Sequence record: NC_054925.1
Origin: Escherichia phage vB_EcoM_NBG2
Strand: one strand, 5' to 3'
DNA length: 64,000 nt
Under the pieces are notes generated by a model. It saw only the letters and a list, made by a program, of their open reading frames with translations. It was not told the DNA's origin and made no database searches. The position numbers and the translations under genes are program-made. Below are positions 1,353 to 3,215 of this stretch, piece by piece (positions within the stretch are counted from its first letter, which is position 1; each line of letters opens with the position of its first letter).

Positions 1353-1486
1353 AGTTTTGTGAAAAAAATTTTTAAAAAGTTTTAGGGAATTCTAGGGTCA
1401 GGAGGGGCAATTAAAAGGTAGGATAATATATTATAAAGGGTATAAACTAAATGATGCCTAGAGAGGCCCGGAAAGGCCTAGATACC

Positions 1487-1513
1487 AAAAAGCCCCAACC
1501 TTTCGGTCGGGGC
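1487..1513 (-). terminator. intrinsic terminator: stem GCCCCGACC-GAAA-GGUUGGGGC followed by UUUUU on minus transcript
   Basis: 9-bp stem with one G-U pair plus U5 tract immediately downstream of the 1522 stop. Confidence 0.7.
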
Positions 1514-1521
1514 TAAGAATG

Positions 1522-1995
1522 TTATTTGATTTGTTTAGCAGACCAAATGCGGTCTTTAATAATTTTTTGGATGTCTTCAACATACTCAAGAGAGTGAGCA
1601 TGTGGATTATCTTTGAAACTATAAGCACGAGCTAGTTTTTGGCCTTCAGTTTTGATTACTAAAAGCTCTTTAAGGATAGCTTCATATTTGGAGATAATTC
1701 CTTTAACAATATTTTTTTCTTGTGCAGCTTTAGGATCTGCTTTAGGAGCAGGTTTACCCGAAGCCTTTGCAAAAGCAGCGCCAGTAGCAACTAGACTTTT
1801 CCAGGCCATACTAACCGCATTTCCTGTAAATCCTTCTGCTTTCATGTCGCGAGCAAATTGGAATCGCGATTCGTCAGAAGCATCTTTATAAGAATATTTA
1901 CCCGCTGCAATGGCTGCTTTTGCGACAGCTTGAATTTCGGTGCTAGATGCTTCATTTAACACCGCTTCATTTAAAAATTGAGTATATGATTTCAT
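1522..1995 (-). CDS. internal-protein-like protein with N-terminal capsid targeting sequence (MKSYTQFLNE/A), 157 aa
   Basis: Start moved to Met at 1995 (AGGAAA RBS); N-terminus matches the T4 IP CTS pattern as I recall it; TATAAATA late promoter upstream. Confidence 0.55.
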   Translation of the reverse strand: MKSYTQFLNEAVLNEASSTEIQAVAKAAIAAGKYSYKDASDESRFQFARDMKAEGFTGNAVSMAWKSLVATGAAFAKASGKPAPKADPKAAQEKNIVKGIISKYEAILKELLVIKTEGQKLARAYSFKDNPHAHSLEYVEDIQKIIKDRIWSAKQIK

Positions 1996-2041: not shown

Positions 2042-2043
2042 CT

Positions 2044-2070
2044 AAAAAGCCCCAACCTTTCGGTCGGGGC
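2044..2070 (-). terminator. intrinsic terminator, second identical copy of the 1487-1513 hairpin plus U-tract; ends the tRNA/small-RNA transcription unit
   Basis: 31-nt string aaaaagccccaacctttcggtcggggctaag identical at 1487-1517 and 2044-2074. Confidence 0.7.
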
Positions 2071-2074
2071 TAAG

Positions 2075-2385
2075 CCTTGCGGCAACCTTGTCGGGGTTCC
2101 ACCTGCTAAGGCAAGTGTTTGTACGAAACGCCGGGATTCGAACCCGGTTATTAAGTAGTTGACGCTACTCAATATTTTTAAAAGGCCATATCTCGACCAT
2201 ATCCGAACGTTCCGTCAAAAACGCTACTCGGCTTATGGCAAAGATATTTCCTCGAATCGATAATTCGGTGCGCCGTTTCTGCTGTGATATAAGGGGACAT
2301 TAACAAAACATAAAGATTTATTAATGCCAGTCCTTAAACAGGGAACATCAGTCCGACGACTTGCCGGTAGCGACCCGGCTTCTTG
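2075..2385 (-). ncRNA. candidate small stable RNA(s) or degenerate tRNA-like element downstream of tRNA-Arg
   Basis: No convincing ORF; minus strand carries a tRNA-like T-arm CCGGG-UUCGAAU-CCCGG (plus 2131-2147) without a matching acceptor stem; position corresponds to where T4 encodes small stable RNAs. Confidence 0.3.
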
Positions 2386-2461
2386 TCTGGTCGAGGCAGT
2401 AGGGATCGAACCTACGACCCAGGACTTAGAAGGTCCTTGCTCTTCCTTCTGAGCTATGCCT
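2386..2461 (-). tRNA. tRNA-Arg (anticodon UCU), CCA encoded
   Basis: Manual fold: acceptor CGAGGCA/TGCCTCG, D-stem GCTC/GAGC, anticodon stem AGGAC/GTCCT with loop CTTCTAA, T-arm GTAGG-TTCGATC-CCTAC. Confidence 0.8.
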
Positions 2462-2467
2462 CGTATT

Positions 2468-2542
2468 TGGCGGACGTGATAGGATTCGAACCTATAACCA
2501 ATCGCTTAACAGGCGATCGCTCTGCCATTGAGCTACACATCC
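2468..2542 (-). tRNA. tRNA-Asn (anticodon GUU), CCA encoded
   Basis: Manual fold: acceptor GGATGTG/CACGTCC, D-stem GCTC/GAGC, anticodon stem ATCGC/GCGAT with loop CTGTTAA, T-arm ATAGG-TTCGAAT-CCTAT. Confidence 0.75.
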
Positions 2543-2546
2543 AAAT

Positions 2547-2633
2547 TGGTGGGGAGTGGTGGAGTCGAACCACCCGAGTCGCAATGACAATGAATTTACA
2601 GTCCACACCGCTACCCCTACGGGATAACTCCCC
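2547..2633 (-). tRNA. tRNA-Tyr (anticodon GUA), long variable arm, CCA encoded; D-arm atypical
   Basis: Acceptor GGGGAGT/ACTCCCC, anticodon loop CTGTAAA, variable-arm hairpin GTC-ATTGC-GAC, T-arm GGTGG-TTCGACT-CCACC; D-stem pairing weak. Confidence 0.55.
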
Positions 2634-2642
2634 AAATTAATT

Positions 2643-2717
2643 TGGTGGCCCTGGGTGGAATTGAACCACCATCTGGCGATTATGAGTCGCGTGCTTGAAC
2701 CTTCCAGCTACAGGGCC
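2643..2717 (-). tRNA. tRNA with CAU anticodon (Ile via lysidine, or Met), CCA encoded
   Basis: Acceptor GGCCCTG/CAGGGCC, anticodon loop CTCATAA, T-arm GGTGG-TTCAATT-CCACC. Confidence 0.7.
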
Positions 2718-2719
2718 TT

Positions 2720-2794
2720 GGTGCTGATTGACGGAATCGAACCGCCGACCTTCTCATTACAAGTGAGTTGCTCTACCTACTGAGCTAAATCAGC
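2720..2794 (-). tRNA. tRNA-Thr (anticodon UGU), CCA encoded
   Basis: Acceptor GCTGATT/AATCAGC, D-stem GCTC/GAGC, anticodon loop CTTGTAA, T-arm GGCGG-TTCGATT-CCGTC. Confidence 0.8.
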
Positions 2795-2799
2795 AAAAC

Positions 2800-2889
2800 T
2801 GGCGGAGGCGATAGGATTTGAACCTATGAGTCGCCGGAGCGACTGCCGGTTTTCAAGACCGGTGCATTAAACCACTCTGCCACGCCTCC
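2800..2889 (-). tRNA. tRNA-Ser (anticodon UGA), class II long variable arm, CCA encoded
   Basis: Acceptor GGAGGCG/CGCCTCC, anticodon stem CCGGT/ACCGG with loop CTTGAAA, T-arm ATAGG-TTCAAAT-CCTAT. Confidence 0.85.
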
Positions 2890-2891
2890 AG

Positions 2892-2965
2892 TCTCCATAC
2901 AAGGATTTGAACCTTGGACCTCCTGATCCCAAATCAGGCGCTCTACCAAACTGAGCTACACGGAG
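2892..2965 (-). tRNA. tRNA-Pro (anticodon UGG), no encoded CCA; 2 nt from tRNA-Ser (dimeric precursor arrangement)
   Basis: Acceptor CTCCGTG/TATGGAG with two G-U pairs, D-stem GCTC/GAGC, anticodon stem CCTGA/TCAGG with loop TTTGGGA, T-arm CAAGG-TTCAAAT-CCTTG. Confidence 0.8.
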
Positions 2966-2975
2966 TAAATTAAAT

Positions 2976-3049
<74 letters not shown>

Positions 3050-3054
3050 AAATT

Positions 3055-3141
3055 TGGTGCGAGAAGTGGGACTCGAACCCACAAGGAAATCATTCCGCAG
3101 CATTTTAAGTGCTGTGCCTTTACCAATTTGACCATTCTCGC
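3055..3141 (-). tRNA. tRNA-Leu (anticodon UAA), class II long variable arm, CCA encoded
   Basis: Acceptor GCGAGAA/TTCTCGC, anticodon stem CAGCA/TGCTG with loop CTTAAAA, T-arm GTGGG-TTCGAGT-CCCAC. Confidence 0.85.
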
Positions 3142-3142
3142 G

Positions 3143-3215
3143 CTGGGAATAAAGGACTCGAACCTTTGCATCCTGGAATCAAAATCCAGTGCCTTACCAA
3201 CTTGGCTAATTCCCA
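3143..3215 (-). tRNA. tRNA-Gln (anticodon UUG), no encoded CCA; 1 nt from tRNA-Leu
   Basis: Acceptor TGGGAAT/ATTCCCA, anticodon stem CTGGA/TCCAG with loop TTTTGAT, T-arm AAAGG-TTCGAGT-CCTTT. Confidence 0.8.

Follow-up and report, generated by a model that had tools for sequence, protein, structure and literature searches.

The minus strand of the window, by which we mean the whole analysed stretch of 64,000 nucleotides from Escherichia phage vB_EcoM_NBG2 (NC_054925.1), very probably carries at 2386..2122 this phage's rnaD and rnaC genes, which form the tail of a ten-tRNA operon and the second of which is predicted to fold into a tRNA-shaped RNA with a kissing loop. Both genes are already known as those of the T4 species 2 and species 1 RNAs, and finding them here is a re-discovery.

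In the T4 record NC_000866, two misc_RNA features directly follow tRNA-Arg on the same strand, namely rnaD ('species 2 RNA', 119 nt) and rnaC ('species 1 RNA', 139 nt). The minus strand of the window aligned with this stretch in a single colinear alignment, with the same gene order after tRNA-Arg. The rnaD homolog (120 nt) occupies 2267..2386 on the minus strand, is identical to T4 rnaD at 102 of 121 positions and scored 144 bits with model R2. It is separated by the 6-nt spacer GAAUUA (2261..2266, minus strand) from the rnaC homolog at 2122..2260 (minus strand, 139 nt), which scored 157-167 bits with models R1 and R3 and matches T4 rnaC at 137 of 139 positions without gaps, the two copies differing by two substitutions only. 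The leader AAUUA is also found ahead of rnaC-like RNAs in other genera. T4 rnaC (T4s001) lies at the same site, after rnaD and before the operon terminator, with the same strand logic and flanks. T4 rnaD (T4s002) likewise begins one base after the CCA of tRNA-Arg, has the same fold and is almost invariant in its 5' 48 nt and 3' 25 nt, whereas the window has a different sequence version of the central ~50 nt, which form the long-hairpin tip. The array upstream also differs from that of T4: it includes Tyr and Asn tRNAs, lacks segB and has another allele of tRNA-Arg, which is identical to the T4 gene at only 40 of 76 positions.

An earlier note, made from the letters of this DNA, had proposed one or two small RNAs or a decayed tRNA, with processing signals of tRNA type, and had suggested an alignment with T4 rnaC and rnaD; this alignment found both genes, in the T4 order directly after tRNA-Arg. 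The stretch had also been described as structured, and both halves indeed fold better than their shuffles (z = -5.2 for 2260..2122 and z = -2.7 for 2386..2267). The covariance-model search that had been suggested alongside matched no family: Rfam 15 held none for the window interval or for the divergent homologs, at either the gathering or a permissive threshold, which marks a gap in Rfam and not a lack of structure. A search for a host origin gave no match of the RNAs in 5,426 E. coli genomes.

The ten tRNA genes were identified with ARAGORN and the Rfam tRNA model on the minus strand at 3215..2388, in the order Gln, Leu, Gly, Pro, Ser, Thr, Met/Ile, Tyr, Asn and Arg. The last of them is tRNA-Arg(UCU) at 2388..2463 (minus strand), which was recognized by both programs (65.8 bits with the Rfam model) and whose encoded CCA lies one base before rnaD. 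Transcription runs leftward, and the products of the operon end with rnaD and rnaC, behind which lie a 46-nt trailer and the terminator. This intrinsic terminator (2043..2071, minus strand) has a 10-bp stem with 7 GC pairs and a GAAA loop (hairpin 2071..2048), followed by UUUUU, and is the strong terminator with which the earlier note had closed the stretch. The segment 1950-2480 of the window is 100% identical to Escherichia phage vB-Eco-KMB39 and matches 736 phage records, nearly all of them Tequatrovirus and relatives; the rnaD-rnaC block is common to 736-809 phage records, and the window is that of a T4-like phage, a Tequatrovirus. With its extra Tyr and Asn genes and without segB, the array resembles the layout of T2L, RB1 and RB3 (PMC2330249). 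The same paper, on SegB, describes rnaC and rnaD as part of a tRNA precursor of ~1.75 kb that ends after species I, and reports them also in T2L, RB1 and RB3.

The 36-nt terminator sequence occurs twice in the window (1482-1517 and 2039-2074, 97% identical). These twin terminators flank a 157-aa minus-strand gene at 1995..1522 (PHROG 2280, function unknown), which suggests that this gene is a cassette bounded by identical terminators. Directly after the U run of the operon terminator and upstream of the next minus-strand gene, TATAAATA at 2036-2046 of the minus strand is the T4 late-promoter consensus. The trailer itself (2076..2121, minus strand; CAAACACUUGCC...GCCGCAAGGC) is conserved between rnaC and the terminator, shows three short hairpins in its predicted fold and is kept even where rnaC is absent; it is present in JS98, IME341 and VR20. 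Its first motif, CACUUGCC, also stands after the CCA of the Klebsiella JD18-type rnaC (locus L060, 4314-4330). Candidate roles for the trailer are a processing signal, a recombination joint or a third small RNA.

As judged from the comparison of homologous sequences, rnaC is a tRNA-shaped four-way junction without an anticodon. Nucleotides 2-8 pair with 131-137 of the 139-nt RNA in an acceptor stem of 7 positions (CGAUUCG at 2253..2259, minus strand, with CGUUUCG at 2130..2124), which in the window has 5 Watson-Crick pairs and two U.U mismatches. Among relatives, the acceptor pair 4-142 is A-U or G-C, and other lineages have C-G/C-G, U-A/A-U or U-A/U-A at the two U.U positions, which are Watson-Crick in the JD18, TG1 and PM2 groups. 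The T-arm CCGGG-UUCGAAU-CCCGG (2131..2147, minus strand) leads directly into the acceptor 3' strand at 2130..2124, followed by U73 and A74, and its third stem pair is G-C, U-A, A-U or C-G among relatives. This arm (CCGGGTTCGAATCCCGG), which had been noticed before, was confirmed at 2147..2131 and is unique in the 64-kb window at up to 2 mismatches, with 0 occurrences expected in shuffles. The 'weak acceptor partner' ascribed to it does exist, but it does not lie nearby, being the 5' end of the 139-nt RNA itself. Similarly, the D and anticodon arms that had been reported missing are absent in their canonical form (ARAGORN, Rfam tRNA model), but equivalents supported by covariation exist. A D-like stem of 3 bp, AGG (9-11) with CCU (76-78), encloses an irregular arm of ~60 nt, and all three of its pairs are compensatory (AGG/CCU, CAC/GUG, UGG/CCA, AAC/GUU). 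Then come a 9-nt A-rich linker and, at the place of the anticodon arm, a 10-bp hairpin with a 6-nt loop (2174..2149). The linkers AAAAU, GG and UAAC are invariant in rnaC.

This fold was assessed in two alignments, both fitted to the nested structure of the model, so that their nested pair counts lean towards that structure while the kissing helix lies outside the model: in the first (22 sequences), 98.1% of cells were paired and 21 pairs were changed on both sides, compared with ~38% of cells paired for slid partners, and in the second (24 sequences, seven phage groups), 93.0% were paired, compared with 36-46% for slid partners, and 40 of 51 pairs were double-changed. The RNAalifold consensus of the first alignment was identical to the single-sequence fold. 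Conserved structure in related phages, on which the earlier note had staked its reading, is thus present. A pairing between the rnaD loop CGCUA and UAGCG of rnaC was also considered and rejected; it comprises 5 nt only, lies inside stems and is conserved in the T4 type alone.

The apical loop of the long arm, UUGACG (2213..2218, minus strand), is complementary to 2164..2159, that is, to the loop CGUCAA (2159..2164, minus strand) at the tip of the 10-bp hairpin 2174..2149. Both loops are invariant and perfectly complementary in all T4-type sequences, even where the stems beneath them wholly differ. In place of the T4-type combination of long-arm loop and hairpin loop (UUGACG and CGUCAA), we found UUGCAG and CUGCAA in Klebsiella JD18, KPV15 and Roth79, UUGAUG and CAUCAA in Yersinia TG1 and phiR1-RT, UUGGCG and CGCCAA in Klebsiella Marfa, and UUAGCG and CGCUAA in Erwinia Cronus. 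Among the 24 sequences, 99.3% of the cells of the six kissing pairs were paired, and three of the six pairs were double-changed in four lineages, with none changed on one side only; the covariance search models had been built without this helix. By exception, just 4 contiguous kissing pairs are left in Pectobacterium PM2. The covarying complementary 6-mers indicate a putative kissing loop, and the loop-loop pairing may lie within one rnaC molecule or join two. With its two 6-nt loops paired to each other, rnaC would therefore have no free anticodon.

The likeness of rnaC to a tRNA lies in the 7-bp acceptor joined directly to a 5-bp T-stem, the UUCGAAU loop, a GG at the D-loop position and the placement of rnaC-like genes inside tRNA arrays with tRNA-like spacing. 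It differs by the lack of an anticodon, the 60-nt arm in the D region and the 10-bp 'anticodon' hairpin with a 6-nt loop predicted to pair with the long arm. The window rnaC has an acceptor stem contiguous with a T-arm that carries a UUCRANU loop, and it encodes U-ACA at the place of a 3' CCA. No tRNA was detected in 2075-2385 by ARAGORN or the Rfam tRNA model, and a cloverleaf with a 7-nt anticodon loop and a D-arm was not found there; the sole weak Rfam match of tRNA type was to tRNA-Sec, with 17 bits against a gathering score of 47. U73-N74-C75-A76 is found in almost all homologs, and U73-CCA is encoded in the JD18, Marfa and PM2 groups. The GG, which stands just 5' of the 3' strand of the D-like stem, is nearly invariant and may correspond to G18/G19 of tRNA. 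In Q7622 (L003, 709-848) and Kc304 (L038, 334-473), the T-loop is UGCAUGC or UGCAUUC (UGCAUKC) and not UUCGAAU, so the canonical T-loop is not universally kept. The rnaC of Pectobacterium phage PM2 (L163, 15222-15360) has the acceptor AGGUUCG/CGAAUCU with G3.U70, as well as U73 and a CCA encoded in the DNA. Among rnaC-like RNAs, the alanine identity pair G3.U70 was seen only in PM2, which is also the lineage with reduced kissing.

Several known RNAs invite comparison. In the tRNA-like domain of tmRNA, on which RNase P acts, the two ends of the molecule pair as an acceptor stem beside a T-arm, with a large insertion between them. The end-formed acceptor stem, the T-arm and the large insertion are shared by rnaC, but it lacks the conserved G3.U70 (A3-U70 in the window), a tag reading frame and a pseudoknot series; the Rfam tmRNA models gave no match to rnaC beyond the T-loop, and inner short ORFs are not conserved between lineages. 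The bacterial Y-RNA-like YrlA is an ncRNA with an internal tRNA-like module that is handled by tRNA enzymes, and its ends form a Ro-binding stem. rnaC is comparable to it as an RNA with a tRNA-like module, the two having no similarity in sequence or model. In its position, rnaD corresponds to 3'ETS-leuZ, a stable and functional RNA freed from the 3' side of a tRNA, again with no similarity in sequence or model, and no Hfq or sponge role is known for rnaD. The core recognition motif of the homing endonuclease SegB is GGTTCRANTCC (PMC2330249). The T-arm of rnaC (2131-2147) contains GGTTCGAATCC, which matches this motif, so that rnaC could be a SegB cleavage site in mixed infections.

The window rnaD has a 5' hairpin at 2379..2363 (GCCGG-GUCGCUA-CCGGC, 5 bp with a 7-nt loop) and a long hairpin whose base is invariant (2360..2339 with 2286..2268) and whose tip is hypervariable. 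In twenty-one T4-type rnaD sequences, the 5' 48 nt and the 3' 25 nt are nearly invariant, and the central ~50 nt exist in at least four unrelated versions, each folding as a closed hairpin. The RNAalifold consensus comprises a base helix of GUCGUCG with CGGCG.AC and an invariant purine-rich internal loop, and two further helices are compensatory, e.g. U40-A107 or A40-U107. Weaker matches to the rnaD model (15-40 bits) were obtained in Karamvirus, Kanagawavirus, Moonvirus, the Marfa group, PM2 and JD18-type loci, where each rnaD-like RNA begins right after the CCA of a tRNA. In the wider alignment of rnaD-like RNAs, 96.3% of cells were paired and 12 of 22 pairs were double-changed. Directly ahead of rnaD stands the 3' end of a tRNA or, in some phages, a protein gene. 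A hammerhead- or K-turn-like reading of CUGAUG...GAAAC in rnaD was rejected, there being no three-way junction and the tandem G.A being speculation. In an evolution experiment published in 2025, phage BW1 acquired a convergent SNP in its rnaD homolog while adapting to one E. coli host (PMC12685909). This SNP, near rnaD position 41 (PMC12685909), falls within the near-invariant CUGAUGUUCC, beside the helix of the covarying pair 40-107. A natural variant (L018) carries U42 -> C in rnaD, by which a U.G pair becomes C-G.

As our searches show, at least seven groups of T4-like Enterobacterales phages have rnaC-like RNAs in their tRNA arrays. Divergent rnaC homologs were found by BLAST in Karamvirus, Kanagawavirus, Moonvirus and Winklervirus, always inside tRNA arrays and with no adjacent T4-type rnaD, and a covariance model based on rnaC found homologs that BLAST had missed. 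When 79 loci around the conserved dNMP kinase gene (gene 1) of diverse T4-like phages were fetched and searched with the second model, 24 rnaC-like RNAs were obtained, all of them on the strand of the dNMP kinase gene and 2.5-7 kb downstream of it. When viral and metagenome contigs were scanned with T4-type motifs, this returned only near-identical copies or chance matches; the covariance-model searches of the gene 1 loci reached divergent lineages. The slot between rnaD and the trailer holds rnaC in T4 and the window, is empty in JS98 and IME341 (L002, L007), and in Escherichia phage VR20 (L017, 3600-4100) holds the late promoter TATAAATA and an ORF of ~125 aa. Since the contents of this slot vary among phages, rnaC behaves as one more cassette of the tRNA array.

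A shorter tRNA-like domain of 94 nt, in which the internal segment ACGGAACG (2215..2208) serves as acceptor strand for the 3' end, was rejected, as none of its 8 pairs is compensatory and one of them is disrupted in 13 of 27 sequences. This competing 8-bp internal acceptor accounts for the 95-nt 'tRNA-Met' that ARAGORN and GenBank give in Enterobacter phage PG7 (L004, 754-848), which is the 3' 95 nt of an rnaC homolog; many records also place a 'hypothetical protein' CDS over rnaC/rnaD. Both kinds of call are likely to be annotation artefacts, made because no RNA family model exists.

In the 1970s, Paddock and Abelson reportedly determined the sequence of species 1 RNA. RNase III cleaves this RNA in vitro, RNase P acts on its precursor, and T4 phages that lack the whole tRNA region still grow on laboratory strains. 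A transcriptome and proteome study of 2022 confirmed T4 RNAC by northern blot and classed rnaC and rnaD as late and 'of yet unknown functions' (PMC9697503). Papers of 2010, 2022 (PMC9697503) and 2025 (PMC12685909) continue to describe their function as unknown, and no phenotype is known for them (PMC3014915, PMC9697503), the convergent rnaD SNP of phage BW1 being the one experimental link of either RNA to a phenotype (PMC12685909). The recent papers that our literature search covered gave neither a function nor a structure for rnaC or rnaD; within that scope, the comparative structure, above all the kissing loop and the CCA lineages of rnaC, may be new to the literature.

By analogy with T4, RNase P would cut the precursor in tRNA-like fashion at the base of the rnaC acceptor stem, at the 5' end of this RNA. 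Together with the 3' maturation of tRNA-Arg, this cut would release rnaD, exonucleases would trim the 3' tail of rnaC to the end of the acceptor, and both RNAs would accumulate owing to their compact folding. Our tentative suggestion, which we hold to be possible but short of probable, is a role of rnaC in trans as a non-decoding mimic of tRNA, in which it would occupy a factor that recognises the acceptor/T-arm end of tRNAs. Candidates for this factor are an enzyme of processing or repair and a host defence directed at tRNAs, and rnaD would be a separate structured RNA ligand with a fast-evolving variable tip. With two U.U mismatches in the acceptor and ACA for CCA, the T4 type would be a poorer tRNA mimic than other lineages.

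Alternatively, the two RNAs could have no function in trans and be structural modules in cis, serving as processing landmarks or as 3' protection of the precursor and accumulating as stable by-products. Their position at the operon 3' end just ahead of the terminator in T4-type phages would suit such a role, as would the fact that rnaD always abuts a tRNA 3' end or gene end and the lack of a known phenotype (PMC3014915, PMC9697503). We nevertheless consider it unlikely: rnaC stands in the middle of the array in PG7, KMB17 and myPSH1140, where it protects no 3' end, and it is absent (JS98) or replaced by an ORF (VR20) in phages that keep the tRNAs and rnaD. Moreover, loops that stay complementary through four independent changes, together with invariant linkers, reflect more constraint than a spacer or cap needs. 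Loop conservation bears equally on the quite improbable view that these are base-pairing regulatory sRNAs, in which the rnaD tip or the rnaC loops pair with phage or host mRNAs, since the mutual complementarity of the rnaC loops explains their conservation without an external target. One transcriptome paper does speak of 'small regulatory RNAs' (PMC9697503), the convergent SNP arose in rnaD during host adaptation (PMC12685909), and at least four unrelated versions of the rnaD tip sit on one conserved scaffold; however, the variable region is a closed hairpin in every version, no target is known, and there is no similarity to any E. coli sequence.

The earlier note had also offered a decayed tRNA, and a pseudogene marked by the T-arm in an otherwise drifting spacer would leave just such a perfect T-arm without a cloverleaf, with the acceptor stem weakened in the T4 type. 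This idea did not hold up and is highly improbable: rnaC is identical to its T4 counterpart at 137 of 139 positions while the adjacent tRNA-Arg is so at 40 of 76, the model-fitted alignment has 93% of its cells paired and compensatory changes in 40 of 51 pairs across seven phage groups and several genera, and T4 makes a stable RNA from rnaC (PMC9697503). The chance that the interval encodes small proteins is close to nil, even though automated annotation puts one to four CDS ('hypothetical protein') over the block in many records. The earlier note had seen no ORF with an RBS in the stretch. Only mechanical ORFs of 22-42 aa lie wholly inside 2075-2385, mostly with TTG starts, and the sole inside ORF of the minus strand (2306..2178, TTG, 42 aa) crosses the boundary between rnaD and rnaC. 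These ORFs are not kept between lineages, substitutions track base-pairing and not codon positions, and the T4 reference annotates RNAs here.

The reading of rnaC as a tRNA mimic could be widened, with still more reserve, to all its relatives. On the fold and distribution supported by our comparison, rnaC-like RNAs would be a widespread, uncatalogued family of anticodon-less tRNA mimics, locked by the kissing loop, ancestrally CCA-ended and acting in trans, and rnaD-like RNAs would be a second family, of tRNA trailers with a fast-evolving tip. The role in trans might be, for example, that of a decoy for tRNA-targeting defence or of a modulator of RNase P or CCA-end metabolism. As Rfam holds no family for them, annotation pipelines routinely place spurious 'hypothetical protein' genes or a false 95-nt 'tRNA-Met' on these RNAs. 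The comparative model, with its fold, kissing loop, CCA lineages, rnaC cassette and broad rnaD-like family, provides experimental handles on the role of rnaC and rnaD, a question ~50 years old, and a seed for an RNA family.
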